Counted from the stretch's first letter, positions 4,746 to 60,061 are shown. The stretch: DNA of 64,000 bases from an uncultured Fibrobacteraceae bacterium (GCA_964436825.1 CAYTEO010000010.1:36-64035); one strand, 5' to 3'. Program-made: numbers and translations. The notes: generated by a model not told the origin, from the sequence alone.

Positions 4746-4749
4746 CGTC

Positions 4750-6249: not shown

Positions 6250-6256
6250 GGCTGGC

Positions 6257-7635: not shown

Positions 7636-7678
7636 AACTGCTGCCCGCCTTTTTGGGGATGAGTTGCAACTGACCGTG

Positions 7679-7707: not shown

Positions 7708-7787
7708 CCCCCCGCCCCCGTCTTGTCCCCTGCCGGAGCCTCTGCTACCTTGCCTGGACACGTCACCGTCGCCGGGAAAGGACAGCC

Positions 7788-20485: not shown

Positions 20486-22630
20486 TCAACGGGCGAGGGT
20501 CAGTTTCCCCGTGACACGCACCGGGCGGCCGTCCGCCCCGCGGGCGGTGACGGCGTAGAGGTAGGTCCCGGTGGGGCAGGGCCGGCCGGCATCGTCGGTG
20601 CCGTCCCACAGGAGGCTGCGCGTGCCGCCCGCGGTCGACCGCCAGGGGAACGTCCGCACCAGGCGGCCGCGGGCGTCGTAGATCCGCAGGCGATCGGCAA
20701 CGACCTGCGACGGCGCCCGCCAGCGGATCAGGCCGCGCCCGGCAAAGGGGTTGGGCAGCGGCGGCATCAGGCTCAGGCCGGTCGGAGCGGCCACGATCGC
20801 CGTGGAGGCGGTGATCTCGGCGTCGAACAGGAGCCAGCCGTCGGGATCGAGGGTCAGGTCGAGGACCTGGGCGCCGGTGCGGATGCGGAACGTCTGGTCG
20901 AGCTCGTCGTTCATGATCTTCACCAGCGTGTCCCCGGCGGTGGTGTGCAGGAGCAGGTCGATGGGCAGCAGGAAGGGATCGTCACCGTCGACGGGATCGG
21001 CCGGCTGGACCTGGCGGATCTGCAGGACCAGCTCCCACCGGCCCGGCTCGCCGGCATTGGACCAGGTCACCTCGAGCCGGGGGTTCGTGCTCCGGTAGAG
21101 CCACTGGTGGAAGAACCAGTCCAGTCCCTTGCCGTAGATCTTCTCGCAGATGTCGATGAAGTCGTCGCTGTCGGCGTTGCGATAGGCCAGTGCCGAGGAC
21201 TGGGCGTAGTCGTGAAGGATCGTGAAGAAGGTCTGGTCGCCCACCAGGTGCCGCAGCATGTGCAGGACCCAGGCCCCCTTGTAGTAGACCATGTTCTTGA
21301 AGTAGTACCAGGGATCGTCCTCGTCGGGTGAACGGACCAGGGGGTCGTTCCACCACGTGGTGCTGCTGCGGGCGGCCATGAACCACTTCAGCGCCGTGGG
21401 GCCGTTCTCGTGCTCCTGCCAGAGGGCCTCGGCGTAGGTGGCGAATCCCTCGTTCAGCCAGATCTGGGTCCAGTCGGTGGGGGTGATCTTGTCGCCGAAC
21501 CACTGGTGGGAGAGCTCGTGGAGGATGACCGAGTCGAACCAGTGATCGCCGGTCAGGAAGGAGGACGAGTAGGTCGTGGCGGTGGGGTGCTCCATGGCGC
21601 CGTCCCACTCGAACAGGGCCATGCCGTACTTCTGGTCCGGGAACGGATAGGGGCCGAACTTCCGCTCGCAGAAGGCCAGCATGTCGTTCAGGCGGGAGAA
21701 ATCCTCCCGGGCCGTCTCCACGAGCCAGGGATAGACGAAGTGCCTGATCTGCAGGGTATCCCCCGTGATGCCGACGTAGATGTCGTCGAGCTCCACGTAG
21801 TCGGTGACGGCCACCGAGAGCAGGTAGGTGGAGATGGGCAGCGGCTCATCCCAGCAGAAGGTCTCGAAGGAGCTGTCCTTGTCGGCCGGCAGCCACCGGC
21901 TGGCCTGTTCGTCGGCCCTGGCGCCCAGGTAGGGGTTGACCGGCTGGTCGGCGAGCTGGATTCCCTGCGAGACGGCGGTCGTGCCCCGGGGGACGGTCAG
22001 CGAGACGGTGCAGGTGGCCTTGTCCCGGGGATCGTCCTTGCAGGGCCACCAGGAGCGGGCGCTCCACGGCTCGCTCAGGCTGGCGGCCACCGGCTGCCCG
22101 TCCTCGCGGGGGGTGATCTGGAAACCGAAGATCCCGTCCGGGTGCGGTTGCCCCGAGAAGACGATCATCGCCGTCATCGTGTCGCCCGGTGCGAATTCCC
22201 TGGGGAACGAGAACCTCAGCAGGTCGTTGCTGTGCTCCCAGGGCAGGAACACGAAGCCGGGATCGAACCAGCCGACGGTGGCGATCTCCATGTCGTCCAG
22301 GTAGTCCAGGACGATCTCCGAGAAGCCGGGGACCAGGGGGGTGACGGTGACGTAGAGCAGCCCCAGCACCGAGGCCTGGTCCAGGGAGACCTGCATCCGC
22401 AGGTCGTAGTGGACGACGTCGAAGTCCTCCTGTCCCGGCGCGGGGGTCGGCATCTTGTCGGCGAGGCGGGCGGCGTACAGGTCGGCCAGGGGCTTGCCCT
22501 CGCACGTCCAGCCGTCCACCAGGGCGGGGCGGTCGGCGCAGGGCACGACGACCGGCCGGCCGATGGACAGCAGCACACAAGCCACGACGAACAGCACGCC
22601 GCGGCGCGGAATGGATGAGGCGATGTTCAA
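20486..22630 (-). CDS. M1-family zinc aminopeptidase (aminopeptidase N-like) with a C-terminal T9SS-type sorting domain
   Basis: Zinc-binding motifs HELSHQWFGD and NEGFATYAE (HExxH-18-E). The C-terminal tail NPFAGRGLIRWRAP...IYDARGRLVRTF...GTYLYAVTAR is present. A predicted signal peptide (GVLFVVACVLLSIGRPVVVPCA) only becomes N-terminal with a TTG start at 22630 (AAGGGA upstream). The track ORF extends further upstream through low-complexity sequence. Confidence 0.75.
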   Translation of the reverse strand: MNIASSIPRRGVLFVVACVLLSIGRPVVVPCADRPALVDGWTCEGKPLADLYAARLADKMPTPAPGQEDFDVVHYDLRMQVSLDQASVLGLLYVTVTPLVPGFSEIVLDYLDDMEIATVGWFDPGFVFLPWEHSNDLLRFSFPREFAPGDTMTAMIVFSGQPHPDGIFGFQITPREDGQPVAASLSEPWSARSWWPCKDDPRDKATCTVSLTVPRGTTAVSQGIQLADQPVNPYLGARADEQASRWLPADKDSSFETFCWDEPLPISTYLLSVAVTDYVELDDIYVGITGDTLQIRHFVYPWLVETAREDFSRLNDMLAFCERKFGPYPFPDQKYGMALFEWDGAMEHPTATTYSSSFLTGDHWFDSVILHELSHQWFGDKITPTDWTQIWLNEGFATYAEALWQEHENGPTALKWFMAARSSTTWWNDPLVRSPDEDDPWYYFKNMVYYKGAWVLHMLRHLVGDQTFFTILHDYAQSSALAYRNADSDDFIDICEKIYGKGLDWFFHQWLYRSTNPRLEVTWSNAGEPGRWELVLQIRQVQPADPVDGDDPFLLPIDLLLHTTAGDTLVKIMNDELDQTFRIRTGAQVLDLTLDPDGWLLFDAEITASTAIVAAPTGLSLMPPLPNPFAGRGLIRWRAPSQVVADRLRIYDARGRLVRTFPWRSTAGGTRSLLWDGTDDAGRPCPTGTYLYAVTARGADGRPVRVTGKLTLAR

Positions 22631-22802
22631 TGCGAGACGTCCCTTATCAGTCGTGTCCGGTACGTCCTTCCGCTGCCTGTCACTTGCCAAGCATCGCGAG
22701 CGATGCAACACTGGTCCCCGGCAATGGTAGCACACCGGAGCGGACCGCGGCAACCCGCCCCCGGCCGGACGGTCCGGGGGCAATCCTGACGGGAGAGAGA
22801 CG

Positions 22803-24119
22803 ATGATCGACAGCAAGGCCTTCAACCTCGATGTCTCGGAAGCCGAGTCCATCCTGCCGGACGGTGCGCTGGAGGGCCTGGCGGACGACGTGGACCGGGT
22901 CGCCGGCGAGCTGGCGGCGGGACAGGGCCCCGGCGCGGAGTTCCTGGGGTGGCGGGAACTGCCGCAGCGCATGCTCGGCGAGGAGCGTCACCGCCTGCTC
23001 GAGTCGGCGGAGCAGGCCCGTGCCGACAGCGACGATGTCGTCGTCGTCGGCATCGGCGGCTCCTACCTGGGGGCCCAGGCGATCCTGACCGCCCTGGCCG
23101 ACCACTGCGACGGTCCGCGGATCCTGTTCGCCGGGACCGATCTCTGCGCCACGTCCCTGCGTCGGCTGGAGCAGGCGCTCGCGGGCCGGGACGTCCGTCT
23201 CTGCGTCGTCTCCAAGTCCGGCACGACGCTCGAGCCGGCCGTGGCCTTCCGGTTCCTGCGGCGCCTGCTGGAGGAGCGCTACGGCCGCGACGGGGCGTCG
23301 CGGCGCATCACGGCCATCACCGACGCGGAGCACGGGGTCCTGCGCCAGCTGGCCGAACGGGAGGGTTACGAGACGTTCGTCATCCCTCCCGACGTGGGGG
23401 GGCGCTTCTCCGTCCTCTCCCCGGTGGGACTCTGGCCGGCCGCCGTGGCGGGGATCGACATCGTCCGCCTGCTGGAGGGCGCGGTCGACATGGCCACCAC
23501 CTGCGACAACCCGGCCCTGACCGCCAATCCGGCCCACCTCTACGCCGCTGCCCGCACCGCCCTCTACCGCGCCGGCTACACCACGGAGATCCTGGCGTCG
23601 TTCGAGACCGGCCTGCGCGACCTGCAGCGCTGGTGGCAGCAGCTCTTCGGGGAGAGCGAGGGCAAGCAGGGCGAGGGGATCTTCCCCGCCGTGGCCAGCT
23701 ACACCACCGACCTGCACAGCCTGGGCCAGTACGTCCAGGACGGGCGCCGCGACCTGCTGGAGACCTTCCTGGTCGTCGAGGAAACCCTGCCCGGGATGGC
23801 CGTGCCCGCCGACCCCGGCGACGACGGCGCCGACGCGGACCGCGACGGGCTGGCCTGGCTGGCCGGCCGCCCCCTGGACGAGATCAACCGCAAGGCGTAC
23901 GAGGGGACCCGCAAGGCCCACCGCGAGGGCGGGGTGCCGGTGCTGGCCATCGAGCTGAAACGCCTGGACGAGTGGTCCCTGGGCGGGCTGCTGATGTTCT
24001 TCCAGCGGGCCGTGGCCGTCAGCGGCCGGCTGCTGGGGATCAACCCCTTCGACCAGCCGGGGGTGGAGGCGTACAAGCGGGAGATGTTCGGGTTGCTGGG
24101 CAGGCCGGACGCCGGTTGA
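22803..24119 (+). CDS. pgi: Glucose-6-phosphate isomerase
   Basis: GGGAGAGAGACG precedes ATG 22803. Conserved PGI blocks VVVGIGGSYLGAQA, VVSKSGTTLEP, GGRFSVLSPVGL and FGESEGKQ. Confidence 0.85.
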   Translation: MIDSKAFNLDVSEAESILPDGALEGLADDVDRVAGELAAGQGPGAEFLGWRELPQRMLGEERHRLLESAEQARADSDDVVVVGIGGSYLGAQAILTALADHCDGPRILFAGTDLCATSLRRLEQALAGRDVRLCVVSKSGTTLEPAVAFRFLRRLLEERYGRDGASRRITAITDAEHGVLRQLAEREGYETFVIPPDVGGRFSVLSPVGLWPAAVAGIDIVRLLEGAVDMATTCDNPALTANPAHLYAAARTALYRAGYTTEILASFETGLRDLQRWWQQLFGESEGKQGEGIFPAVASYTTDLHSLGQYVQDGRRDLLETFLVVEETLPGMAVPADPGDDGADADRDGLAWLAGRPLDEINRKAYEGTRKAHREGGVPVLAIELKRLDEWSLGGLLMFFQRAVAVSGRLLGINPFDQPGVEAYKREMFGLLGRPDAG

Positions 24120-24225: not shown

Positions 24226-26667
24226 CTATTCGACCAGCACCACCCTCCGGCAGACGCTCTCGGTCCTCCCGTCCGACGCCTCCAGCACGATCCGCAGCAG
24301 GTAGGTGCCGCTGGCGCAGGCACGCCCATCCTGGTCGCGTCCGTCCCAGCCCAGGATATGGATGCCCGGCGGCAGGGCGGCGTCCTCCAGCAGGGAGCGG
24401 ACGCGGCGGCCGCGGACGTCGAAGACGCCCACCCGGCAGGCGCCGGGAGCCGTGGTGCGGAAGGAGACCGTGGTCGAGGGGTTGAACGGGTTGGGCCAGG
24501 CCAGCGCGTCGCGCAGGAGCGACGGCGGGGCCGCCGCGTCCGGCACCCCGGTGACGATCCCCACGCCGCCCGTGCCGCCGGCCTCGCGGTAGCGCTCGGC
24601 GAACTCGGTCAGGAAGGCCGCGGCGATGGCGTCGTCGTGGAGGATCAGCGTGTTCTCGTCGTTGACCGTCTCGGCGCTGTAGCTCCAGTTGTGGCTCCCG
24701 GTGACCACCAGCGGGTCGTAGGGGTTGGGGATGTGCGTCATGGCGTCGCAGGTCGTCAGCCGCCCGTCGACCACCAGGTACTTGTGGTGCAGCAGCACGT
24801 CGAGGGAGAGGGCCGTGTCCAGGTGGACGTCCGCGGGCGGGTTCCACGGCGCGAGGGCGCAGGCGTCGCCGTGCATGGCGAAGTACTCGCTGCCGCCGGT
24901 GCAATCCCCCTGGTCCTGGTCGAAGACGCCCAGGACCGGCACCCCGGCGTCGAAGCGCTGGTGCATGGCGGCGGCGATGTCGTCGTGGGTGAAGGCCAGG
25001 ATGGCGAAGGCGAGACTCTGCTCCGCCGAGCCGATGGCCTCGATGATCCGGTCGGTCGTCCCGTCGCTGGGGCTCATGTACTGCTCGACGCGGATGCCGT
25101 TGATGGTGAACTCGTGCGGCGTGTTGTCGATCTTGGCGCTTCCCATGGCGGCCCGGGCGGGGTCGGGGGTCATGGTGTCGCTGCCCCACATCTCCTCGAA
25201 CTCGAGGGTGTAGGCCCGGGCCAGGCCGTGGTCCCGGATGGCGATGGCGTTGTTCAGGTCGTCGTTGCCCGAGACGCTCATGTTGGCGCTGCCGGTCCAG
25301 ACCCAGTCGTTGGCGGGGTCGGCGTCGCGGGCGTCGATGACGACGAACTTGTTGTGCATGATCCCGCTGGCGTGGTTGCCGCCGAAGGTGCTGGTGATGT
25401 AGGGGACCCCGGCGGCGGCCAGGACGTCGGCGTCGTAGGTGGAGCTGCTGGCGTCGATGATCAGCCGGACCTCCACGCCGCGGTTGTGGGCGTTGAGCAG
25501 GGCGTCGCGCACGTTGTCCAGGCTGAAGCTGTAGAGGGCGCAGTCGATCGAGCTGGTGGCCTGGTTGATCAGGATGGCCAGCTTGGCCGAGAGGATCTGC
25601 CACCACTGGTGATCGGTGAAGCAGCCGGTGTACTGGGTGTCGCCGCTGCCGCTGAAGTAGACGTGGATCTCGCCCGGGGTGTCGCTGGCCGTCGCCAGGA
25701 GCTGGTCGGGACCGTAGCTCGTCCCGCCGGCGTCGGTGGAGCGGACGCGGAAGTGGTAGACGGTGTTGGGCTGCAGCCCGGTCAGCTGGACCAGGTGCGA
25801 GGTCTCCGAGGCGTTCGGGTCGCCGGCCGTCTGGCCGTAGCTCGTGTCCAGGCCGTACTCAACCTCGCTGCTGCCGGGCAGGGTCGTCTCGAACAGGATG
25901 TCGGCCCCGGTGGGGGCGACGTTGCGGACCAGGGCCGGGTCGGGGATGCCCGGACCGCTGCCGGCGGGGATGACGTCGCCCAGATCCCGCGGCAGCAGCT
26001 CGTAGCCGGTGGTATAGGGCGAGGAGGTGTCGTACTGCTTCAGCAGGCCGACCAGGGAGAAGCCGTCGCCGGGATCGGGGCTGCCGTTCAGCGGCGTGTC
26101 CTGGTCGATGTAGACCTTGGCCGTGCCGGTCCCGTCGGTGACGTAGAGGATGGTGTTGCCGGTCGGGGTCGTGGGCCAGGCGCCGCTGGTGATCGTCAGG
26201 TTCGACAGGCGCACCAGGCGGCCCTCGTCGGGCTCGCTGTAGTCGGCCCGGAAGGCACCCGTCAACTGGGCGCAGGTCAACGGCAGCGGGGCGGGTGGAC
26301 CGCCGCTGGCGGGGCCGTGATCGACCAGCGTCGTGTAGCTGGTGCTGGTGCCCAGCTCGGTCATGCCGTTGTACTGGGCCACCTGGGTCGTCACCGTCAC
26401 GCTGTCGCCGACGGCCAGGGAGTACTGGGAGGCCGCGCCGGAGAGCCACAGCAGCACCCCGCCGGTGGCGTCCTGGAGGTAGACCTCCAGGTTGTAGGTG
26501 GAGAACAGGCCGCTGGGCGCGGTGACGATCCCGCTGACGGTGACCGTCTGGCCGAGCAGGGTCGGCACGCCGCTGGCGTCGTTCTGGTGGAGGTCGGCGA
26601 TGGGAAGGCCCAGCGCGGTGCCGGCGATCCCGAGCGACAGCAGACAGGTGAAGACCATGCGGCGCAT
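24226..26667 (-). CDS. Secreted phospholipase D-superfamily (two HKD motifs) protein with an FN3-like segment and a C-terminal T9SS-type sorting domain
   Basis: ATG 26667 with AAGGGGGA SD. Signal MRRMVFTCLLSLGIAGTALG. HKD motifs HNKFVVID and HHKYLVVD. C-terminal tail NPFNPSTTVSFRT...FDVRGRRVRSL...GTYLLRIV. Confidence 0.75.
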   Translation of the reverse strand: MRRMVFTCLLSLGIAGTALGLPIADLHQNDASGVPTLLGQTVTVSGIVTAPSGLFSTYNLEVYLQDATGGVLLWLSGAASQYSLAVGDSVTVTTQVAQYNGMTELGTSTSYTTLVDHGPASGGPPAPLPLTCAQLTGAFRADYSEPDEGRLVRLSNLTITSGAWPTTPTGNTILYVTDGTGTAKVYIDQDTPLNGSPDPGDGFSLVGLLKQYDTSSPYTTGYELLPRDLGDVIPAGSGPGIPDPALVRNVAPTGADILFETTLPGSSEVEYGLDTSYGQTAGDPNASETSHLVQLTGLQPNTVYHFRVRSTDAGGTSYGPDQLLATASDTPGEIHVYFSGSGDTQYTGCFTDHQWWQILSAKLAILINQATSSIDCALYSFSLDNVRDALLNAHNRGVEVRLIIDASSSTYDADVLAAAGVPYITSTFGGNHASGIMHNKFVVIDARDADPANDWVWTGSANMSVSGNDDLNNAIAIRDHGLARAYTLEFEEMWGSDTMTPDPARAAMGSAKIDNTPHEFTINGIRVEQYMSPSDGTTDRIIEAIGSAEQSLAFAILAFTHDDIAAAMHQRFDAGVPVLGVFDQDQGDCTGGSEYFAMHGDACALAPWNPPADVHLDTALSLDVLLHHKYLVVDGRLTTCDAMTHIPNPYDPLVVTGSHNWSYSAETVNDENTLILHDDAIAAAFLTEFAERYREAGGTGGVGIVTGVPDAAAPPSLLRDALAWPNPFNPSTTVSFRTTAPGACRVGVFDVRGRRVRSLLEDAALPPGIHILGWDGRDQDGRACASGTYLLRIVLEASDGRTESVCRRVVLVE

Positions 26668-26843: not shown

Positions 26844-28082
26844 ATGGCAGACCTGATCCGTCCCCATGGCAGCGACCAGCTGCTGCCCCTGCTGCTCGAG
26901 GGCGAGGCCCTCGCCGAGGAACTGGCCCGGGCCGAGAGCCTGCCCAAGGTGACCCTCTCCAGCCGCGAGACCGGCGACCTGATCATGCTTGGCATCGGCG
27001 GGTTCACCCCGCTGACCGGCTTCATGGGCAAGGCCGACTGGGAGGGTGTCTGCCGCGACATGACCCTCGCCAGCGGTGTCTTCTGGCCCGTGCCCATCAC
27101 CATGAGCGTCGATCAGGAGACGGCCGACTCCCTCGGCGAGGGGGACGAGATCACCCTGCTCAGCGGCGACACCGGCGAGATCATGGCCACCATGCGGGTC
27201 GAGGAGAAGTACGAGATCGACCGGGAGTTCGAGTGCAAGCACGTCTTCGGCACCACGGACACCGACCATCCCGGCGTGGCCATGGTCATGAACCAGAAGG
27301 CCGTCAACCTGGCCGGCCCGGTGAAGGTGCTGAGCGAGAGCTACTTCCCGCACGAGTTCGCCGGCCTGTACATGCGCCCGGCCGAGAGCCGCCGCATCTT
27401 CGCCGAGCGCGGCTGGAAGACCGTGGCCGCCCTGCAGCTGCGCAACCCCATGCACCGTAGCCACGAGTACCTGGCCAAGATCGCCATCGAGGTCAGCGAC
27501 GGGCTGTTCATCCACCAGCTGGTGGGCAAGCTGAAGCCGGGCGACATCCCCGCCGAGGTCCGCGTCCGCTGCATCGACACCCTGGTGGAGAACTACTTCA
27601 TCAAGGAGCGCGTCGTCACCGGCGGCTACCCCCTGGACATGCGCTACGCCGGCCCGCGCGAGGGGCTGCTGCACGGCGTGTTCCGCCAGAACTTCGGCTG
27701 CACGCACATGATCATCGGGCGCGACCACGCCGGGGTGGGCAACTACTACGGCCCGTTCGACGCCCAGAACATCTGGCACGAGATCCCCGCCGGCGCGCTG
27801 GAGATCAAGATGCTGCCCATCGACTGGACCTTCTGGTGCTACAAGTGCGGCGGCATGGCCAGCATGAAGACCTGTCCCCACGGCAAGGAGGACCGCCTGT
27901 TCCTCAGCGGCACCGCCCTGCGCAAGGCGCTGAGCGAGGGCGAGGACGTCCCCGCCGAGTTCTCCCGCCCCGAGGTGCTGGCCATCCTGCGCGAGTACTA
28001 CGCCGGCCTGAAGGACGAGGAGAAGGTCAAGGTGGAGCTGCACGACGCGGCCAAGGGGATCGACAAGCGGTCGGGGAAGTAG
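26844..28082 (+). CDS. sat: Sulfate adenylyltransferase (ATP sulfurylase, homo-oligomeric Sat type; no APS-kinase domain)
   Basis: ATG 26844 (MADLIRPHG). Motifs [13 protein letters not shown] and [17 protein letters not shown] (the HxxH-type nucleotide-binding motifs of ATP sulfurylase). About 413 aa. Confidence 0.85.
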
Positions 28083-28113
28083 GGACCGGTCTCCCCCTCC
28101 GGACACGGCAACC

Positions 28114-28137
28114 GGCGCCGCCCCCGGGGGCGGCGCC
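28114..28137 (+). terminator. Perfect 24-nt GC palindrome (ggcgccgcccc-cg-gggcggcgcc) downstream of sat. It is a terminator-like hairpin without a U-tract.
   Basis: Located 30 nt after the sat stop. No T-run follows, so function is uncertain. Confidence 0.3.
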
Positions 28138-28152
28138 GTCGTCGTGCTCCCC

Positions 28153-28182
28153 TTGCCGCTCGTCCGCAGGGTGTGCTACAAT
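28153..28182 (+). promoter_or_regulatory. Putative promoter (-35 TTGCCG, 18-nt spacer, extended -10 TGcTACAAT) for the Cys-rich protein gene
   Basis: The hexamers are well spaced, with a TGn extension. They lie about 45 nt upstream of GGAGG and ATG 28227. Confidence 0.4.
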
Positions 28183-28226
28183 TTCAGAGTAAAGCAACCA
28201 TGTGACTATGAGTTCGGAGGCCCGCC

Positions 28227-29057
28227 ATGTCCGACCGCCTGCTGCTCCGCGTCCAGTGCCCCGGCTGCGGAGTCTCGCTGATGGATCCCCACCGCCTGAT
28301 CGACCGCCTGCCCGCCATCCGGCTCCGGGGCCGGGCGGGGGAGACGGACGGCACCCTCTGGCTCTCCGCCCTGTACGGCAGCCACGCGGTGGAGGTGGAT
28401 TTCTCCCTCCCCGCCGCGGGGATCGTGACCCTGGCCTGTCCCCACTGTGACGACGAGCTGGCGCACCCCTTCACCTGCGACAGCTGCGGCGCCCCCATGG
28501 CGGCCCTGGACGTGGTGGGCGGCGGCCGGGTGCACGTCTGCACGCGCCTGGGCTGCCACCGGCACTTCCTGGAGATCAGCGATCCCGCCCGCGAGGTCAG
28601 CACCCTCTGCCGAACCACCACCGCCGGCGCCCAGGAGGCGGCCGATGCGGGGGAACGTGTGGAGCTGGCCACCGGCACCTTCCTGGCCACCTACTGCCCC
28701 CACTGCCGGGTCAGCCTGATCCGGGAGGAAGACCTGGTGTTCGAGGTCCAGGGCCCGGCCGGTGACTGGGGCGAGCTGGTCCTCAGCCCCTACCTCAACG
28801 TCTTCACCCACGAGTCCACCGTGGACATCCCCGCCAGCCGCGAGGTGCAGGACCTGCGCTGTCCCCACTGTCACCACTCCCTGGTGGAGCCGGAGCTTCG
28901 CTGCGACACCTGCGGCGCCCACGTGGCCGCCGTCATGGTGCTGGCCATGCGCAAGCTGATCACCTTCTACATCTGCCTGCGCGAGGGGTGCCACTGGCAC
29001 GGCATCTCCGTGGAGGACACGCAGCTGATCTCCCTGGAGGCCAGCGCCGAGTGGTGA
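28227..29057 (+). CDS. Cys-rich protein with an internal duplication. Each half carries CPxC...CDSCG/CDTCG...C..GCH zinc-ribbon-like motifs (uncharacterised).
   Basis: GGAGG SD. Repeat 1 (VQCPGCGVSL...ACPHCDDEL...CDSCGAPMAALDVV...CTRLGCHRHF) parallels repeat 2 (YCPHCRVSL...RCPHCHHSL...CDTCGAHVAAVMVL...CLREGCHWHG). Confidence 0.7.
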   Translation: MSDRLLLRVQCPGCGVSLMDPHRLIDRLPAIRLRGRAGETDGTLWLSALYGSHAVEVDFSLPAAGIVTLACPHCDDELAHPFTCDSCGAPMAALDVVGGGRVHVCTRLGCHRHFLEISDPAREVSTLCRTTTAGAQEAADAGERVELATGTFLATYCPHCRVSLIREEDLVFEVQGPAGDWGELVLSPYLNVFTHESTVDIPASREVQDLRCPHCHHSLVEPELRCDTCGAHVAAVMVLAMRKLITFYICLREGCHWHGISVEDTQLISLEASAEW

Positions 29058-29224
29058 ACCGCGTCCCTGCCCGGGAGTGCCCCGATGAGGTAGCGCTCCG
29101 ACGCCATCGTTGCTAGCATGAGCGGGCAGCGGCCGACGGCGGGTCGTCGGGACCCGGTTGGCCGTGGTTTGCGGCACATGAGCGGGCCGCGCCTCATCTG
29201 TTCAGCCCCAGCAAGGAGACGGAC

Positions 29225-29809
29225 ATGGCCTTCGAGTTGCCCGAGCTACCCTACCCCAAGGATGCCCTTGAACCTCATATCTCCGCCGAGACGCTGACCT
29301 ACCACCACGGCAAGCACCACGCCGCCTACGTGAACAACCTGAACAAGCTGATCGCCGGCACCGAGTTCGAGTCGATGCCCCTGGAGGAGATCATCGCCAA
29401 GGCGCCGGCCGGCGGGATCTTCAACAACGCGGCCCAGACCTGGAACCACACGTTCTACTTCGAGGGCATGGGTCCCGACGGCGGCGGCGCTCCCGCCGGC
29501 GATCTGGCCGAGGCCATCGCCCGCGACTTCGGCTCGTTCGCGGCCTTCCAGGAGGAGTTCAGCAAGGCGGCGGCCGGAAACTTCGGCAGCGGCTGGACCT
29601 GGCTCGCCCGCAATCCCGACGGCAAGCTGGAGATCGTCAACACCAGCAACGCCGGTACCCTGGCCGTCGGCGACCAGAAGCCGCTGCTGACCCTCGATGT
29701 CTGGGAGCACGCCTACTACATCGACACGCGCAACGCCCGTCCCAAGTACATCGAGAACTGGTGGCACGTCGTGGACTGGAACGTCGTGGCGCGGCGCTTC
29801 GCCGGCTGA
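29225..29809 (+). CDS. Fe/Mn-type superoxide dismutase
   Basis: AGCAAGGAGACGG precedes ATG 29225. Conserved residues HHGKHH, AQTWNHTFY, GSGWTWL and DVWEHAYY are present. Confidence 0.85.
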   Translation: MAFELPELPYPKDALEPHISAETLTYHHGKHHAAYVNNLNKLIAGTEFESMPLEEIIAKAPAGGIFNNAAQTWNHTFYFEGMGPDGGGAPAGDLAEAIARDFGSFAAFQEEFSKAAAGNFGSGWTWLARNPDGKLEIVNTSNAGTLAVGDQKPLLTLDVWEHAYYIDTRNARPKYIENWWHVVDWNVVARRFAG

Positions 29810-29835
29810 GGCGGCCAGTGACGGGGAACGCAAGA

Positions 29836-29859
29836 GGGGGCGGCCAGCCGGCCGCCCCC
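29836..29859. terminator. GC-rich hairpin (gggggcggcc-agcc-ggccgccccc) between convergent genes. It is a candidate bidirectional terminator lacking a U-tract.
   Basis: 10-bp perfect stem, 27 nt after the sod stop and 22 nt before the stop of the minus-strand gene. Confidence 0.3.
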
Positions 29860-29880
29860 TGCTGGTGCCGTGTCACGCGG

Positions 29881-30711
29881 TCAGTGGAGTCGCTTGATGC
29901 CCTGGACGATCAGGGCCAGCTCGTCCATCCCGTAGTTGGCGGCCGCGTCGTTGGCGGCGGTGACGCGCAGGGTGTAGCCGCTCTTCTTGCCGGGGGTTCC
30001 CTCGGGCAGGGTCAGCTTGCCGCCGAAGATGCCCGTCTTGCCCGTCCACGGCATCTCACAGCTGTCCACGACCTCGCCCCGGTGCAGCAGCTCGGCGCGG
30101 ACGACGTAGTCCTGCGGCAGCCAGAACTTCCGGTCCGGCGTGATGGGGCAGGTGCACAGGAGCTTCACCTCCGCCGAGATGTCCAGCTCGCTGCCGCTGA
30201 ACAGGCGCTGGGCCGGGGTGGGGGTCAGGATCGAGACGATCAGTCCCTGCAGTTCCAGGACGATCCCGTCGCCGGTGATGTCGTGGCCGGGCAGGACCAG
30301 GAGCGTCTTCTCGGCGCGGGCGACGGCCTGCTCGTGGCCCAACGGCGCCGCGGCGGCGACGGTGACCCAGGTGGGATCGGTCAGCGCCAGGCGGGCCGTG
30401 AAGACGGCCGCGCCGTCGGTCGTGTAGAGGGACTCGCCGCGGACATGGGGCCGGGCCATGATCAGGTCCGTCGAGCCGGTGCCGCCCCACTGGACCCCGC
30501 GGGCCAGGACCTCCCCGGTGCGGGCGTCGCGGACGACGACCTCGGCCCCGCCGGCGTCGTCGCCGATGAGCTTGGCGTCGTGGGCCACGACGTGGACGGT
30601 CAGCAGGGTCGGGACCGGCTCGGCGGACCGGGCCAGGGTGGCGGTCGTCAGGGCCAGCAGCAGCGGCAGCAGCAGGGCGGCGCCCAGGCGCAGGAGGAAG
30701 CGGTGCGACAC
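29881..30711 (-). CDS. Secreted hypothetical protein
   Basis: GTG 30711 with GGGAGA 7 nt upstream yields the signal peptide VSHRFLLRLGAALLLPLLLALTTATLARSA. No recognisable catalytic motif. The track ORF start at 30828 lacks a signal or SD. Confidence 0.55.
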   Translation of the reverse strand: MSHRFLLRLGAALLLPLLLALTTATLARSAEPVPTLLTVHVVAHDAKLIGDDAGGAEVVVRDARTGEVLARGVQWGGTGSTDLIMARPHVRGESLYTTDGAAVFTARLALTDPTWVTVAAAAPLGHEQAVARAEKTLLVLPGHDITGDGIVLELQGLIVSILTPTPAQRLFSGSELDISAEVKLLCTCPITPDRKFWLPQDYVVRAELLHRGEVVDSCEMPWTGKTGIFGGKLTLPEGTPGKKSGYTLRVTAANDAAANYGMDELALIVQGIKRLH

Positions 30712-30838
30712 GGTCGTTCTCCCTGTTTCGAGACGGGCTGTTCGGAATCCGGAACAAGATAGTATGGGGAGCTGGTCCCGCCAAGGGGATCGACCGCGGC
30801 AGGAAGGCGTCGTGGGCATGTCGCTCACAACATCGTCA

Positions 30839-30866
30839 TGACAGGTCGATCCCGCGGGGTTATAAT
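30839..30866 (+). promoter_or_regulatory. Putative promoter (-35 TGACAG, 16-nt spacer, -10 TATAAT) for sulfotransferase gene 30917
   Basis: Consensus -10 in the divergent intergenic region, about 50 nt upstream of ATG 30917. Confidence 0.45.
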
Positions 30867-30916
30867 CGTGCGAACGCTCGCCTGCGACATCGTGTCAGAC
30901 AGCCTTTCGAGGTGCC

Positions 30917-31753
30917 ATGCTGGGATTCATTCACATCGCCAAGACCGGAGGGCAGACGATCCAGACGATGCTCTCCAGTGCCCACGGGCCCGGCCACTGC
31001 GAAGCCGTCAGCTGGCGTCGCCCCGAGACCACGGTCGGCGCGGGACAGCGGTTTGTCGTGCCCAAGTACGATGTCGACGACTTCCGGCGGCTCCTGCGTC
31101 TCTGCCCCCGGGCCAAGAGCATCTCGGGCCATCCGGTGACGCTGTGGGGGGGGCTGCACGAGGTCGTGCCGTCGGTCCGCTACTTCTGCCTCGTCCGTGA
31201 TCCCATCAAGCGCGGCGCCTCCCACTACCAGTTCCATCTCAACACCGAGTCGCCCGATCTCACCTGGGAAGAGTGGGTGGCCTGGCCGGTGCACCACAAT
31301 CACCAGGTGAAGATGCTGTCCAGGAGCGGCAGGGTGGCCGACGCGATCGAGGCCATCCGCAGGCACGACGTGTTCGTGGGGTTGACAGAGCGTTTCGACG
31401 AGTCGCTCGTCATGTTGCGGAAGTTCGTCGCCCCGGACCTCAATATCGCCTACCGCCGCACGAACACGGCGGCATCCAACGAGGTGGCCCGGCGTGTCCT
31501 GGACGATCCCCGCGCCAGGGAGGACATGGAGAGGATCTACGCCGAGGACAGCGAACTCTACGCCTTCGTCAAGGAGGAGCTGTACCCGGAGTACCGTCGC
31601 CGGTACGGCCCCGGGCTCGAGGAGGATGTCGCGGCATTCCAGCGGGAGCGGGAACGGCGGTTCAACCACCTGAACGTCCGGCTCCACGATGCCTACCGCA
31701 AGCTCTACGTGAGGCCGGCGGCCCGCCTGTTGACCCGGAGATTCAGCCTGTGA
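30917..31753 (+). CDS. PAPS-dependent sulfotransferase (Sulfotransfer_2-like; 5'-PSB loop FIHIAKTGGQT)
   Basis: N-terminal HI(A/P)KTGG motif characteristic of the carbohydrate and small-molecule sulfotransferase family. About 278 aa. Soluble. Confidence 0.7.
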   Translation: MLGFIHIAKTGGQTIQTMLSSAHGPGHCEAVSWRRPETTVGAGQRFVVPKYDVDDFRRLLRLCPRAKSISGHPVTLWGGLHEVVPSVRYFCLVRDPIKRGASHYQFHLNTESPDLTWEEWVAWPVHHNHQVKMLSRSGRVADAIEAIRRHDVFVGLTERFDESLVMLRKFVAPDLNIAYRRTNTAASNEVARRVLDDPRAREDMERIYAEDSELYAFVKEELYPEYRRRYGPGLEEDVAAFQRERERRFNHLNVRLHDAYRKLYVRPAARLLTRRFSL

Positions 31754-31769
31754 GCGGGGCGACCGCCGC

Positions 31770-32999
31770 TCAGCCGAAGAAGAGGTAGGCCACCAGGATC
31801 GCCGCCGCCAGCCCTGCCGCGTCGGCGGCCAGGCCGCAGGCGACGGCGTGGCGGGTCCGCCGGATCCCGACGCTGCCGAAGTAGACGGCCAGGACGTAGA
31901 AGGTCGTCTCGGTGCTCCCCTGCATGATGCTGGTCAGCCGGCCGACGAAGGAGTCGGCGCCGAAGGTCCGCATCGCCTCGACCATCATCCCGCGCGCGCC
32001 GCTGCCGCTGAGCGGCTTCATCAGGGCGGTCGGCACCGCGTCGATCCAGCGGCCGTCCACGCCGGCGACGGCCGCGACGGCCCGCGCCCCGTCCAGGGCC
32101 AGGTCCAGCGCCCCGCTGGCGCGCAGGACGGCGATCCCCGCCAGCATCCCCACCAGGTAGGGGATGATTCCCACGGCGACGCCGAATCCCTCCTTCGCGC
32201 CCTCGACGAAGGTCTCGTAGACCGGCACCCGCCGGCGCGCCGCCGCGCCGATGAAGGCGACGATGACGGTCATCAGCAGCAGGTTGGCCACCAGCGCGGA
32301 GCGGGCCTGGAGGGCCGCCTGGTCCATCCCGGCCAGCCACCACACCAGTCCGCCCACCAGCAGGGTCGCCCCGCCCAGCCAGGCGACGATGACCGGATCG
32401 GTCAGCCGGCGCCGCTGGACGGCTGCGGTCACGAGCAGGCCGACCATCGTGCTGCAGAAGGTGGCGATCAGGATCGGCAGGAAGACGTCGGTGGGGCTGG
32501 CCGCGCCGAGCTGGGCCCGGTAGGTGAAGATCGTCACCGGCAGCAGGGTCACCGAGGAGGTGTTGATGACCAGGAAGAGGATCTGGTCGTCGCTGGCGGT
32601 GGTCGGGGCTGGGTTCAGCTCCTGCAGCTCCCGCATCGCCTTCAGGCCCAGGGGGGTGGCGGCGTTGTCCAGCCCCAGGACGTTGGCGGCCATGTTCATG
32701 ACGATCGAGCCGGCTGCCGGGTGCCCGGCGGGAATCGAGGGAAACAGCCGGCGCAGCAGCGGTCCGAACAGGCGGGCCAGCAGGTCCACGGCCCCGCCCC
32801 GCTCGCCCAGGCGCATGAAGCCCAGCCAGAGGCACATGACCCCTGTCAGTCCCAGGGCGATCTCGAAGCCGGTCCTGGCGGCGTCGAACAGGGCGTCGAC
32901 CATCGCCTGGAAGACGTCGGGCCTGCCGAGAAGGGCCGCCTGGACCAGTCCCGCGGCCATGGCAACGAGGAAGAAGGCTGTCCAGATCCGGCCGAGCAT
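31770..32999 (-). CDS. Nucleoside-recognition (Gate) domain membrane protein, fused SpmA/SpmB-like
   Basis: Polytopic membrane protein with two Gate-domain halves. ATG 32999 shares its A with the stop of the upstream sulfotransferase (TGATG overlap). Confidence 0.65.
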   Translation of the reverse strand: MLGRIWTAFFLVAMAAGLVQAALLGRPDVFQAMVDALFDAARTGFEIALGLTGVMCLWLGFMRLGERGGAVDLLARLFGPLLRRLFPSIPAGHPAAGSIVMNMAANVLGLDNAATPLGLKAMRELQELNPAPTTASDDQILFLVINTSSVTLLPVTIFTYRAQLGAASPTDVFLPILIATFCSTMVGLLVTAAVQRRRLTDPVIVAWLGGATLLVGGLVWWLAGMDQAALQARSALVANLLLMTVIVAFIGAAARRRVPVYETFVEGAKEGFGVAVGIIPYLVGMLAGIAVLRASGALDLALDGARAVAAVAGVDGRWIDAVPTALMKPLSGSGARGMMVEAMRTFGADSFVGRLTSIMQGSTETTFYVLAVYFGSVGIRRTRHAVACGLAADAAGLAAAILVAYLFFG

Positions 33000-33787
33000 C
33001 AGGTTCCTGTTCCCGTTGAGCTGGGAACGGCTGGAGGGTTCCCTGCGATCTGCCTCTGTCTCACCGCGGCCATGCGAGCCATGACATCCTCGATGCGGCC
33101 GTAGCGGGACCTGAGCATGCGCTCGGCGATGGCCATGTAAGGGGAGAAACCGTTGCGATGCCGGAAGAGGTCGGGCCGGCGGCAGTCCTCCAGGTGGCGG
33201 CCCATGAACGCCTCCAGTCGGGCGAACTCGGCGTCACTGGTCATCAGTTCGTCGTAGGCCAGGACGAGATACTCGTACGGAGTGCTCTCCAGGATGGACA
33301 GAATCCTCACATTGTAATCATACCAACGGTCTAGGAACCTCCAGGCCCGCCCGATGTTGCCGGGTGCGTGATGGGGGCCATGATACCGGTAGTGGGGCCA
33401 AACGGCAGCCGGCCCTCTGTAGACGACGATCAGCCTGTGTTCCGGCAGCAGCTCCTCCCAGAGAGGGTAGGTCAGTGCCGTGCGGGGATCCTTGAATCCC
33501 CAGTCCTTGTATCTCCGCTCGCAAGTGCCGATCACCTCCTGCATCCTGCGCTGCAGGTCGGGTCCGGCGGTCAGCGGTTCCGGGGCCTTCAGATCGATGG
33601 TGGAGTAGCTGTCGGTGCCGAGGATCTCCAGGTTCAGGTGCAGGATCGACTGGCGCTCGTACTTGTTTCCCTCGTCGTAGCTGACCGATGGATCGATCTC
33701 GTCGTCCATGTTGATCCCGGAATGATGGAGGATCTGGGATGTGAGGGTGGTGCCGGATTTGTGCATGCCGAGCACGACGTAGATCAT
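32999..33787 (-). CDS. PAPS-dependent sulfotransferase (Sulfotransfer_1/3-like; PSB loop VVLGMHKSGTT)
   Basis: Internal ATG 33787 (MIYVVLGMHKSGTTL) with GGAGA SD. P-loop-like PAPS 5'-phosphosulfate-binding motif. The stop overlaps the downstream Gate-domain gene start. Confidence 0.7.
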   Translation of the reverse strand: MIYVVLGMHKSGTTLTSQILHHSGINMDDEIDPSVSYDEGNKYERQSILHLNLEILGTDSYSTIDLKAPEPLTAGPDLQRRMQEVIGTCERRYKDWGFKDPRTALTYPLWEELLPEHRLIVVYRGPAAVWPHYRYHGPHHAPGNIGRAWRFLDRWYDYNVRILSILESTPYEYLVLAYDELMTSDAEFARLEAFMGRHLEDCRRPDLFRHRNGFSPYMAIAERMLRSRYGRIEDVMARMAAVRQRQIAGNPPAVPSSTGTGT

Positions 33788-33999
33788 CTTCGGTGTCTCC
33801 TCGTCACGGACACGGGAGTGACATCGTCGGACAAGAATCAAGCACGTCGTAACATGGCTGGCAACAAGCAATGAGAGGGACTTGCCGGCAGGGAAGTTCG
33901 GTGTCATGCTGGAACCCTGTCGTTGTTCGCTCTGGTCGATCGCTGTCCATCGGGAGTGCGACCGTCGTGACCACGCTCTGGACCGGCACCCTCACCAAG

Positions 34000-34812
34000 A
34001 TGGCCGTCACCCCCGGTCCACCGGGGCAGGCGGCCGCCTACTCCCTGACCGACGGCTTCCACGACCCCGCCGGGCGCAGCTCCGATCTCCCCCTGAACCC
34101 GCTGCTGGGCCGGCCGGTCGAGCTGCGCTTCACCGGCACGATCACCTGCGTCGCCTGCGGGCGGGAGACGAGGAAGACCCACGGGCCCGGCTACTGCTTC
34201 CCCTGTTCCCGGCGGCGGGCCGAGGCCGACATCTGCATCGTCAAGCCCGAGCTGTGCCACCACGGCGACCCTGACGCTCCCTGCCGCGACGAGGAGTTCG
34301 CCAGGCGGCACTGCTTCCAGCCCCACGTCCTGTACGTCTCGCTGACCTCGGCGCCCAAGGTGGGGATCACCCGCAAGGTCAACATTCCCACGCGCTGGCT
34401 GGACCAGGGGGCCGTGGCGGCGGTACCCCTGGCCGAGCTGCCGAGTCGCCGCGACGTGGGCCTGCTGGAGAAGGAACTCTCCGCCCGCCACGCCGACCGG
34501 ACCCACTGGATGACGATGCTGCGCGAGGAGGCGCCGGAACACGACCTGGAGGAGTTCGCCGCGCGGGTGGCGGCCGAGCTGGAGGAGCGCGGCGTGACGC
34601 TGTTGCCGCCGGAGCAGCGGGTCGTGCACCGTTTCCGGTATCCAGTCCTGCGCTTCCCGGAGAAGGTCAGGAGCTTCAACCTGGACCGCTCGCCCGTGGT
34701 GGCGGGGATCCTGGAGGGGATCAAGGGCCAGTACCTGCTGCTGGATGGCGGTGTCATCAACGTCCGCAAGTTCACCGGCTACCACGTCGAGCTGCGGGGG
34801 GAGGGGGAATGA
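34000..34812 (+). CDS. Conserved hypothetical protein with a CxxC...CxxC zinc-ribbon motif (DUF2797-like)
   Basis: Motif TCVACGRETRK...GYCFPCSRRRAEADIC. The start is uncertain: ATG 34000 was chosen, and ATG 33871 is an alternative. Neither has a good SD. The stop overlaps the SLC13 start (ATGA). Confidence 0.5.
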   Translation: MAVTPGPPGQAAAYSLTDGFHDPAGRSSDLPLNPLLGRPVELRFTGTITCVACGRETRKTHGPGYCFPCSRRRAEADICIVKPELCHHGDPDAPCRDEEFARRHCFQPHVLYVSLTSAPKVGITRKVNIPTRWLDQGAVAAVPLAELPSRRDVGLLEKELSARHADRTHWMTMLREEAPEHDLEEFAARVAAELEERGVTLLPPEQRVVHRFRYPVLRFPEKVRSFNLDRSPVVAGILEGIKGQYLLLDGGVINVRKFTGYHVELRGEGE

Positions 34813-36344
34813 GCGGGGACAAGGGCCGTTTCCAGGCGATCGGCCTGTGGCTGGGACCGCTGGTCGCGGTGCTGCTGATCCTGTCGGCGGACCTGGATCC
34901 GGACCGGCCGGAGGTGACGGCCATGGCGGCGGTCGCCCTCTGGATGGCGCTGTGGTGGCTGAGCGAGGCGGTGCCGCTGGCGGCGACGGCGCTGCTGCCG
35001 GTCGTCCTCTATCCCCTGCTGGGGATCATGAGCGGCAGGGAGGTGGCACCGGTCTACTGCAACTGGATCATCTTCCTGTTCCTGGGCGGGTTCATGGTGG
35101 CCCTGGCCATGGAGCGCTGGGACCTGCACCGGCGGATCGCCCTGCGGATCATCTCCGCCATCGGCGGCGGGCCGCGGCGGATCGTCCTGGGCTTCATGCT
35201 GGCCAGCGCCTTCCTCTCCATGTGGGTCAGCAACACGGCGACGACGATGATGATGGCGCCGGTGGCCATGGCCGTCGTGGCGGGCCTGCGGGGGCGGGCC
35301 GACCGGCAGCGCGTGGACGCCTTCGCCACCGCGCTGCTGCTGGCGACGGCCTACGCCGCCTCGGTGGGCGGCCTCTCGACGCTGATCGGCACCCCGCCCA
35401 ACCCGCTGCTGGTCAGCAACGTGGGTGTCATGTTCCCCGGGGCGCCCGAGATCTCGTTCGCGGGCTGGATGATCCTCGGCCTGCCGGTGGCCGTCGTCGC
35501 CCTGGCGGTCGTCTGGGTCGAGCTGTCGCTGCTGTACCGGCTGCACGAGGCCGGCGACCTGATCGACCACGCCGCCCTGCGCCGCCAGCGGAAGCTGCTG
35601 GGGCCCATGTCCTTCGCCGAGAAGGTCGTCCTGGCCGACTTCTCCCTGATGGCCCTGCTCTGGCTGTCGCGCAAGGGATTGACCGTCGGCGGGTTCTCGG
35701 TGCCGGGCTGGTCGCACCTGCTGTCCCACGGCCGGTTCGTCGACGACGGCACCGTCGCCATGACCCTGGCCCTCGTCCTGTTCGTCGTCCCCGCCCGCAA
35801 CGGGAAGGGAGAGAGGATCCTGGACTGGCCCACCGCCCGCCGGCTGCCGTGGGGGATCGTCCTGCTGTTCGGCGGCGGGTTCGCCCTGGCCAGGGGGTTC
35901 GTCGCCACGGGTCTGTCCGGGTGGCTGGGCGACAGGATGGCCGGCCTGTCGTTCCTGCCCACGCCGCTGCTGGTCCTGGTCGTCTGCCTCGTCATGACGT
36001 TCGTGACCGAGCTGACGAGCAACACGGCGACGACCCAGATGGCGCTGCCGGTCCTGGCCAGCCTGGCCGTGGCCATCGGGGTCAACCCGCTGCTGCTGAT
36101 GGTGCCGGCCACCCTGTCGGCCTCCTGCGCCTTCATGCTGCCGGTGGCCACCCCGCCCAACGCCATCGTCTTCGGCACCGGCATGGTCTCGGTCCGCGAC
36201 ATGGCGCGCACCGGTCTCCTGCTGAACCTGGTCGGCGCGGTGGTCATCACCGCGGCCATCTACCTGCTGGGCGGGGCGGCGTTCGGGATGGACCTCCACG
36301 GGGTCCCGGCCTGGGCGGCCCACCTGGCGGGGGGAGGGGGGTAG
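34809..36344 (+). CDS. SLC13/DASS-family Na+-coupled anion symporter (sulfate or di/tricarboxylate transporter)
   Basis: About 511 aa polytopic protein with two SNTAT(T/M) hairpin motifs (WVSNTATTMMMAPV and LTSNTATTQMALPV) diagnostic of DASS transporters. Confidence 0.8.
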   Translation: MSGDKGRFQAIGLWLGPLVAVLLILSADLDPDRPEVTAMAAVALWMALWWLSEAVPLAATALLPVVLYPLLGIMSGREVAPVYCNWIIFLFLGGFMVALAMERWDLHRRIALRIISAIGGGPRRIVLGFMLASAFLSMWVSNTATTMMMAPVAMAVVAGLRGRADRQRVDAFATALLLATAYAASVGGLSTLIGTPPNPLLVSNVGVMFPGAPEISFAGWMILGLPVAVVALAVVWVELSLLYRLHEAGDLIDHAALRRQRKLLGPMSFAEKVVLADFSLMALLWLSRKGLTVGGFSVPGWSHLLSHGRFVDDGTVAMTLALVLFVVPARNGKGERILDWPTARRLPWGIVLLFGGGFALARGFVATGLSGWLGDRMAGLSFLPTPLLVLVVCLVMTFVTELTSNTATTQMALPVLASLAVAIGVNPLLLMVPATLSASCAFMLPVATPPNAIVFGTGMVSVRDMARTGLLLNLVGAVVITAAIYLLGGAAFGMDLHGVPAWAAHLAGGGG

Positions 36345-50584: not shown

Positions 50585-50642
50585 AGCGGGTTCCTTCTCC
50601 CTGACGAGCCGTTCACCGCACAGGTCGCCGGCATCGCGCGGT

Positions 50643-51524: not shown

Positions 51525-51551
51525 CCCGGCCCCTCTCGTCTCCCCAGCGGT

Positions 51552-52469: not shown

Positions 52470-52664
52470 GACGGTCCTCGGGTCGAGTTGGAACGTGTTG
52501 AACTCGCTGGCGCTCCATGTGTCCCCGAACGCGTGCAACGGGCGGGGAAGGCGCCGGTCCGATCGTGTCACCGCGCGGGCGGTCGCCCGGCCGGGGTGTC
52601 CGGTTCTCTCATCATCGTCGCCGCGGCCGGCAAGTGAAGCGTCGTCGTGTCGGGGCCGTCACGA

Positions 52665-54710: not shown

Positions 54711-54712
54711 GG

Positions 54713-60030: not shown

Positions 60031-60061
60031 CCTGCCTCCTCGCGCGTGGCGGCCAGGCGTC

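Follow-up and report, generated by a model that had tools for sequence, protein, structure and literature searches.

The window analysed here, a stretch of 64,000 nucleotides from an uncultured Fibrobacteraceae bacterium (GCA_964436825.1, CAYTEO010000010.1:36-64035), carries a gene for ATP sulfurylase (sat), three genes for sulfotransferases (STs, labelled STA, STB and STC), a gene for a membrane protein with a Gate domain and a gene for an SLC13/DASS anion symporter. Genes were called from third-position GC and annotated by Pfam and NCBIfam scans, and all those listed above were found at the positions given in an earlier note on this DNA (Table 1), which had read them as one island dedicated to the activation of sulfate and its transfer to an acceptor. 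We propose, with a probability of roughly 55%, that the region is rather a mosaic, composed of a native backbone and of three ST genes that came later, whose products would use 3'-phosphoadenosine 5'-phosphosulfate (PAPS) supplied by an unlinked adenosine 5'-phosphosulfate (APS) kinase and would be directed at glycans. In this reading we infer the donor, the acceptor, the substrate of the transporter and the direction of gene gain.

The organisation of related genomes carries this proposal. The proteins of the window were used to search 80 genome loci that contain a Gate orthologue (L006-L085). The Gate protein is unusually conserved (67-75% identity across metagenome-assembled genomes, or MAGs, of Krumholzibacteriota, Acidobacteriota and Gemmatimonadota), and neither STA nor STB stands beside it in any of the 80 loci, so that the flanking of Gate by two STs, pointed out in the earlier note, is not a conserved arrangement. 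Many Krumholzibacteria-like loci keep Gate, a divergent DUF2797 gene, an optional SLC13 gene, Smr and SDR on one side, and genes for superoxide dismutase (SOD), an optional sat, PLD and PGI on the opposite side. In L054, a locus of 43% GC, the order is SDR, Smr, SLC13, DUF2797, Gate, Ppx/GppA phosphatase, Na/Pi transporter, zinc-ribbon, sat and PGI, without any ST; sat keeps its syntenic position in L011, L054 and L065, with 75-80% identity. As this synteny is kept without STs, even at 43% GC, we consider Sat and SLC13 as parts of a vertically inherited backbone. DUF2797 adjoins Gate in 29 of the 80 loci and SLC13 follows DUF2797 in only 7. SLC13 was found in seven related loci, including all three that bear sat, and one locus has SLC13 without sat; four related loci (plus the window) are informative on both sides and three of these four show the linkage, which is too few for a statistical test.

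The ST genes, by comparison, occupy different places in related genomes. Locus L099 shares synteny with the far end of the window (CHASE2-cyclase, M48, SH3 and a protein of about 340 aa, unk343, at 40-65% identity), and there the cNMP-MscS gene directly adjoins the cyclase, without the MBL gene or STC, while an STA/STB pair lies about 5 kb further, at a different place. The ST genes are also compositional outliers. They have the three lowest GC contents among the 35 genes (STB 0.617, STC 0.630 and STA 0.661, against 0.707 +/- 0.032) and a low third-position GC, or GC3 (STB 0.81, STA 0.89 and STC 0.89, against 0.94 +/- 0.03 for the 35 genes), STB being the strongest outlier of the window. Sat, Gate and SLC13 look native, with GC3 values of 0.96-0.98 (sat 0.97, SLC13 0.98). 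The low GC and GC3 suggest that the ST genes were acquired later, and acquisition after the backbone was in place is probable. Searches for mobile-element signatures around them found no tRNA gene, no Rfam element and no meaningful flanking repeat near the STs. A contiguous horizontally transferred island was set aside as well, only three single ST genes deviating from a backbone that is syntenic in relatives. The single sulfation island of the earlier note is therefore difficult to reconcile with a backbone (Sat, Gate and DUF2797-SLC13) that is kept without STs in relatives, with ST genes of deviating composition and variable location, and with the 18 kb that separate STC from the others.

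The three STs nevertheless appear to be genuine PAPS-type enzymes, a conclusion supported by their motifs and, for STA and STB, by their predicted folds. STA matches Sulfotransfer_2 (23.8 bits, cutoff 22), with a weak Gal-3-O-sulfotransferase match; its family counts at least 125 proteins. It contains the 5'-phosphosulfate-binding (5'-PSB) motif HIAKTGG(QT), the 3'-phosphate-binding (3'-PB) motif RDPIKRGASH and a FVGLTERFDESL motif; the invariant columns of the family are H6, G12, G71, H72, R94, P96, R99, S102, H103, E158, D161, E162 and S163, K9 and T10 are near-invariant, and GH72 is a candidate catalytic base. The top PDB folds found by Foldseek with its AlphaFold model (pLDDT 93.6) are heparan sulfate 6-O-ST (5t05) and 2-O-ST (4ndz), both bound to 3'-phosphoadenosine 5'-phosphate (PAP). 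STB matches Sulfotransfer_3 (39 bits), has 1082 homologues and shares with them an invariant 5'-PSB (MHKSGTT), the motif WGFKDPR, H117 and R124. Its model (pLDDT 91.0) has TPST2, CurM ST, olefin-synthase ST and the mycobacterial Stf proteins as top folds. All top Foldseek PDB matches of STA and STB are PAP- or PAPS-bound STs with a probability of 1.0, at TM-scores of only 0.4-0.55. STC has the strongest Pfam match of the three (Sulfotransfer_3, 93 bits; Sulfotransfer_1, 34 bits), and its 5'-PSB (VSRSGTS) and 3'-PB (RDPRAVFAS) align to PRSGTT and RDGRASVHS of TPST1 (E 1.5e-5), CurM ST being matched too. Both binding motifs are present in STA and STC, and the objection foreseen in the earlier note, that such residues might be missing, therefore fails for these two enzymes; it applies only marginally to STB, whose 3'-PB serine is not conserved.

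The three enzymes are assigned to unrelated families (Pfam classes Sulfotransfer_2 for STA, Sulfotransfer_3 for STB and Sulfotransfer_3/Sulfotransfer_1 for STC). STB and STC match each other by BLASTP with an E value of 0.098. In hhalign, the family profiles of STA and STB reach a probability of 1.7% and align over the PSB loop only. They are consequently not paralogues in any recent sense, contrary to what had been supposed, and their clustering is not especially unusual either, as members of these families usually occur elsewhere in groups of two or more.

The homologues of the STs in other genomes provide indications about the acceptor. STB homologues sit among genes for GT4 glycosyltransferases (GTs), MurJ-type flippase, UDP-GlcNAc 2-epimerase, DUF354, Wzz and Poly_export proteins. 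One Wzx/Wzy cluster, with genes for Wzz, Polysacc_synt, DegT, Wzy_C and GT4 proteins, contains an STC homologue in tandem with an STB homologue, and polysaccharide-cluster genes lie beside ST homologues in five loci (L003, L004, L090, L093 and L095). Members of the STA and STB families stand side by side in three independent arrangements (convergent in L088(/89), tandem in L090(-92) and divergent in L099(-101)), and in L086, a Krumholzibacteria contig, 7 kb separate them. The neighbours of these pairs include UDP-sugar enzymes (Polysacc_synt_2, epimerase and Epimerase_2), GTs, GHL15, Asn-synthase-like and Beta_helix/FlgD_ig proteins. In nine loci of other genomes with such ST homologues, neither sat nor SLC13 occurs within 10 kb. 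Considering the carbohydrate-ST fold of STA and the contexts of the homologues, a polysaccharide is probably the acceptor, and is our best-supported guess.

A glycan acceptor had also been suggested by the earlier note, on the basis of genes of the window itself; the acceptor stands as the best guess from the homologue neighbourhoods, whereas the contexts of the GT4, UbiA and EmrE-like genes of the window do not indicate a glycan pathway. UbiA (about 10700-11570), formerly read as a polyprenyl-phosphate transferase of glycan synthesis, adjoins UbiD and a UbiX-type flavoprotein, with a radical-SAM gene in the same set (4567-11570), and was rejected as a glycan enzyme because of this grouping; the set looks like one for the prenylation and decarboxylation of a quinone, probably menaquinone. 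The GT4 gene (61111-62304) overlaps a GDE_N_bis/amylo-1,6-glucosidase-like gene, resembling glycogen-debranching genes (both within 61111-64000), which suggests alpha-glucan or compatible-solute metabolism rather than surface-glycan synthesis; it is thus unlikely to belong to a cluster for a surface glycan. As for the EamA/SMR-like gene, a small one at 59662-60114, its match is weak.

Sat is predicted to be a monofunctional ATP sulfurylase of the homo-oligomeric type. It is composed of a PUA_2 domain (PF14306, 183 bits) and an ATP-sulfurylase domain (PF01747, 298 bits), scores 521 bits against NF003166 (cutoff 387) and 400 bits against TIGR00339, contains the motifs RNPMHRSHE and GRDHAG and a C-terminal CxxC...CPH cysteine cluster, and stops after the catalytic domain. 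Its closest PDB structures are 1jhd and 4dnx (the Riftia-symbiont and Allochromatium enzymes), with E of about 1e-98. The bifunctional Sat/APS-kinase model NF004040 remained below its cutoff and was matched over positions 14-389 of 572, that is, its Sat portion only. The monofunctional nature of Sat was thus correctly recognised in the earlier note (with a length of 412 aa and not 413), as was the lack of cysC in the window: a six-frame search of the window found no CysC-type P-loop (G.SG.GK[ST]), its genuine coding frames contain no Walker-A motif, and tblastn with an E. coli CysC probe gave no match in the window or in 94 related loci. The probe was validated as an APS kinase against PDB, where it scored 199 bits with the Arabidopsis enzyme. 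A hidden APS kinase among the unannotated ORFs is ruled out, no P-loop being present anywhere in the window. In bacteria, sat and cysC are often unlinked, and the simplest explanation of the absence is that the gene is unlinked, being assumed to lie elsewhere in the genome.

The symporter is predicted to be a bona fide sodium-coupled anion symporter of the DASS family, with matches to Na_sulph_symp (PF00939, 240 bits) and TIGR00785 (265 bits, cutoff 198.6) and the two SNT motifs VSNTATT and TSNTATT. Compared with known carriers, it scores slightly higher with those of dicarboxylate and citrate (355 bits with NaDC1, 346 with NaCT) than with the sulfate carrier SLC13A1 (299 bits), and reaches 200 bits with VcINDY. 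Its substrate may be sulfate or a di- or tricarboxylate, a role in sulfate uptake being plausible.

Taken as a mosaic, the region could function as follows. The vertically inherited backbone would consist of sat and, 6.7 kb away, DUF2797-SLC13, with the Gate gene between them, and the three ST genes would have been inserted into it, STA and STB on either side of Gate and STC beside the MBL-fold gene. Sulfate would enter the cell, possibly via SLC13, and be converted by Sat to APS, from which PAPS would be made by an APS kinase whose gene lies in another part of the genome. STA, STB and STC would then each O-sulfate one position on the sugars of a polysaccharide that is extracellular or at the cell surface; the GT, flippase and polymerase genes for this polymer would lie outside the window.

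Several observations weigh against this reading, some of which also bear on its alternatives. Part of the GC deficit of the ST genes could come from the amino-acid composition of their products and not from a foreign origin; the nearness of STA and STB to sat and SLC13 (3 kb at most) could be a selected co-localisation and not chance; and in two close relatives, L093 and L094, the Gate/DUF2797 junction likewise retains an ST. The last two points would fit a true dedicated island, in which Sat, SLC13 and the three STs form one selected, co-regulated unit making a specific sulfated product, and so would the grouping of these five genes inside 26 kb, the restriction of sat, among related loci, to those with SLC13 (3/3, plus the window), and the precedent of Bacteroides BT_0411-BT_0416, where sulfate importer, PAPS synthesis and ST genes are contiguous (PMC9417993). 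We nevertheless regard such an island as unlikely. The APS kinase, which is essential to it, is absent from the window, and its genes belong to at least five separate transcription units, encoded on both strands, with SOD, zinc-ribbon, Gate and DUF2797 genes between them and, before STC, about 15 kb of unrelated genes. Moreover, Sat and SLC13 persist in relatives without nearby STs, the ST loci of other genomes are without sat or SLC13, and the STs are the only genes of the set that deviate in composition.

The polysaccharide acceptor of the mosaic also has points against it: it is drawn solely from homologues at 45-77% identity, the 64 kb window contains no cluster of GT, flippase, polymerase and sugar-nucleotide genes beside the STs, and an STB homologue (L005) and an STC homologue (L098, from the same MAG as L054) are in non-glycan contexts. 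The STs could instead act on non-glycan acceptors, such as tyrosines of secreted FlgD_ig proteins (in the manner of TPST or RaxST), a lipid or isoprenoid quinone (in the manner of Stf3 and menaquinone) or a small metabolite. Indeed, among solved structures STC and STB come closest to tyrosylprotein STs and to the CurM and olefin-synthase STs, STA/STB homologues recur beside secreted Beta_helix/FlgD_ig proteins, one STB homologue is located 8 bp upstream of futalosine-type menaquinone genes, and one JGI record labels an STC homologue as dihydromenaquinone-9 sulfotransferase. We find this quite improbable, given that the Sulfotransfer_3 fold matches are weak (TM-scores of 0.4-0.5, 13-16% identity) and uninformative on the acceptor, that STA has the fold and motifs of the carbohydrate-ST type, that polysaccharide biosynthesis is the commonest context of the homologues, and that the menaquinone adjacency was found once.

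As to the donor, the location of the APS kinase elsewhere in the genome is an assumption of the mosaic, the searches having covered the window and the related loci, and the 3'-PB of STB is only partial (R124 is invariant, the serine is not conserved); both count against it. The absence of the kinase could itself be meaningful, if the STs used APS or another donor directly, or if Gate imported or exchanged an adenosine-based sulfate donor for STB, and the coupling of STB to Gate, whose family of membrane proteins is described as 'nucleoside recognition', would agree with the latter, as would the empty searches in the window and the 94 related loci and the missing serine of STB with another donor. 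Such a scheme seems very improbable to us: the complete 3'-PB (RxPxxRxxS), a binding site for the 3'-phosphate exclusive to PAPS, is retained in STA and STC, and STB keeps its arginine; the loci searched are small parts of each genome; sat and cysC are unlinked in many bacteria; and the adjacency of Gate and an ST is missing in all 80 orthologous loci. We therefore keep the mosaic with PAPS as donor as the preferred reading.

In this genome, STB appears to be translationally coupled to Gate, in a pairing unique to it: the stop of STB and the start of Gate overlap in TGATG, from which STB would now be co-transcribed with Gate. With no ST beside Gate in the 80 loci, Gate was rejected as a general partner of STs or PAPS transporter. 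No consistently conserved operon partner of Gate was found among the Gate loci examined, and no solved structural relative; a tandem Gate paralogue lies upstream of Gate in 23 of 72 loci. DUF2797 is divergent from STB-Gate, overlaps the start of SLC13 by 4 nt and has a zinc-ribbon-like cysteine pattern. In L093, the closest relative (Gate 86% and STA 76% identical), STA, an unnamed gene, MBOAT and Gate face two GT4 genes, and in L094 DUF2797 faces an STB homologue followed by a second, weak ST-like gene. The gap between DUF2797 and Gate is occupied in distant relatives by ASST-like, hemerythrin-PAS, TPR, GlpD-like, TerC, RluA-like, SurE and SSF genes. The junction is thus a variable spot, which in this sub-lineage tends to hold glycan-modifying genes; its description as a dedicated glycan-modification hotspot is only partly true, as the genes found there in distant relatives are unrelated. 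The ASST-like gene of this gap (L016 6571-8103) encodes an arylsulfotransferase-like beta-propeller protein (ASST, PF14269); ASST enzymes are PAPS-independent.

Other features of the locus are given in Table 1. The GC content is about 70% along the whole window, and its conserved genes have their closest relatives in MAGs that bear the label Candidatus Krumholzibacteriia or Eisenbacteria, and in some bins labelled Fibrobacteraceae; the contig is from a Krumholzibacteria-like genome of about 70% GC. The zinc-ribbon gene 3' of sat encodes four CxxC pairs and gave weak zinc-ribbon matches only in the Pfam and NCBIfam scans; a zinc-ribbon gene also follows sat in L054 (10261-10602, 113 aa, Zn_ribbon_13), and the two belong to different families. 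SLC13 is followed by Smr, SDR and a D-Ser-dehydratase-like gene. The approximately 15 kb before MBL-STC contain genes for an S9 peptidase, DUF5916, an auxin-efflux-like carrier, DUF1684, a nitrilase-family protein, an Na/H exchanger and a cNMP-binding MscS channel. STC lies inside an apparent cyclic-nucleotide signalling set (48983-54750) with the CHASE2 cyclase, the cNMP-binding MscS channel and the MBL-fold gene, whose product shows a weak similarity to a cyclic-nucleotide phosphodiesterase (34 bits with NF041851, a score far under the cutoff).

Table 1. Genes of the sat-SLC13 region and of the STC locus (positions in the 64,000-nucleotide window)
Feature	Position	Strand	Remarks
PGI	22803-24119	+	
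PLD-like protein	24226-26667	-	
sat	26844-28082	+	412 aa
CxxC-rich double zinc-ribbon protein	28227-29057	+	276 aa, downstream of sat
Fe/Mn SOD	29225-29809	+	
Exported protein unk276	29881-30711	-	no Pfam or NCBIfam match
STA	30917-31753	+	278 aa
Gate-domain (PF07670) membrane protein	31770-32999	-	409 aa
STB	32999-33787	-	262 aa
DUF2797 protein	33967-34812	+	265 bits
SLC13/DASS symporter	34809-36344	+	511 aa
MBL-fold gene	50643-51524	-	
STC	51552-52469	-	305 aa; between MBL-fold gene and CHASE2 adenylate/guanylate cyclase

At least five large, probably secreted proteins of the window (2-3469, 14905-16944, 20486-22972, 24226-26667 and 57384-59540), among them M1 peptidase, PLD-like, lipase-like and LTD proteins, end with an FlgD_ig domain (PF13860), which may be the C-terminal sorting tag of this lineage. 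The same tag is found on the Beta_helix proteins encoded beside STA/STB homologues in other genomes. There, Beta_helix/Chlam_PMP/FlgD_ig and GHL15 neighbours recur (L086 9497-12604, L088 3977-7797, L099 5514-9051 and L005 8803-9768), and these proteins may be a polymer-processing partner of the STA/STB pair. In a single case (L086 14074-16915), an STB homologue precedes VitK2_biosynth and radical-SAM CofH_C genes, which recalls the mycobacterial Stf3 sulfating a menaquinone.

The region itself is fairly ordinary, and what remains most interesting is the recurrent pairing of STA and STB in polysaccharide loci across uncultured phyla. We tentatively suggest, at somewhat less than even odds, that STA and STB are a conserved two-enzyme sulfation module for extracellular polysaccharides, present in Krumholzibacteriota, Chloroflexota, Acidobacteriota and other uncultured lineages, often with Beta_helix/FlgD_ig and GHL15 proteins, and recruited here beside native genes for sulfate uptake and activation. 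If this is true, sulfated glycans would be far more widespread in bacteria than in the cyanobacteria-centred view. Records of sulfated polysaccharides are plentiful for algae, animals and cyanobacteria and sparse for other bacteria, and the recurrence of three uncharacterised ST families in polysaccharide loci of uncultured phyla hints at glycan sulfation as a common modification of the surface in bacteria of sediments and anoxic habitats. Such a sulfation would affect metal binding, the biofilm matrix and the marine pool of sulfated glycans, and the STs could serve the engineering of sulfated polymers. The locus is also a caution, since the closeness of functionally suggestive genes can come from insertions of single genes into a conserved backbone.

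Several known systems can be compared with this region. In the rhizobial NodP/NodQ/NodH and the Xanthomonas RaxP/RaxQ/RaxST systems, dedicated sulfate activation is combined with a PAPS-dependent ST acting on a secreted glycolipid or peptide; NodP/NodQ and RaxP/RaxQ have a CysD/CysN-type sulfurylase fused or paired with APS kinase, unlike the window, which has a homo-oligomeric-type Sat and no kinase. STA resembles the heparan sulfate 6-O- and 2-O-STs (5t05 and 4ndz) in predicted fold (Foldseek probability 1.0, TM-scores of 0.44-0.54) and shares with them and with the Gal-3-O-ST family the HxxKTGG 5'-PSB, the RxPxxRxxS 3'-PB and the layout of the catalytic histidine, but it is only 14-18% identical to the heparan sulfate STs and is a soluble protein of 278 aa without membrane anchor or stem. 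The cholesterol-sulfation cluster BT_0411-BT_0416 of Bacteroides thetaiotaomicron, with its PAPS genes BT_0413-0415, likewise places an ST beside genes for sulfate uptake and activation; however, it is contiguous and complete and its acceptor is a sterol (PMC9417993), whereas the genes of the window are spread over several transcription units, without an APS kinase, and their STs are of the carbohydrate and Sulfotransfer_3 types. Our search of the literature on sulfur assimilation or sulfotransferases of Krumholzibacteria gave nothing useful.

The closest comparisons concern exopolysaccharides. Pontiella sulfatireligans, as described, is a non-cyanobacterial anaerobe with a putative sulfated-glycosaminoglycan cluster, in which genes for PF13469 STs (Sulfotransfer_3) lie in or near a GT2/GT4 exopolysaccharide cluster, and its production of a sulfated exopolymer has been measured (PMC7356697); it belongs to another phylum. 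The Synechocystis xss cluster encodes two STs of different bacterial subfamilies (PF00685, PF03567 and PF13469 types), XssA and XssE, which sulfate one Wzx/Wzy-type polysaccharide, synechan; the study of this cluster calls sulfated polysaccharides exclusive to cyanobacteria (PMC8205485), a statement to which Pontiella is a counter-example (PMC7356697). Our comparison with synechan is one of function. The STs of the window lie outside any GT/Wzx/Wzy cluster and come from a non-cyanobacterial, uncultured phylum, but homologues of STA, STB and STC are likewise paired inside clusters of the Wzx/Wzy type.

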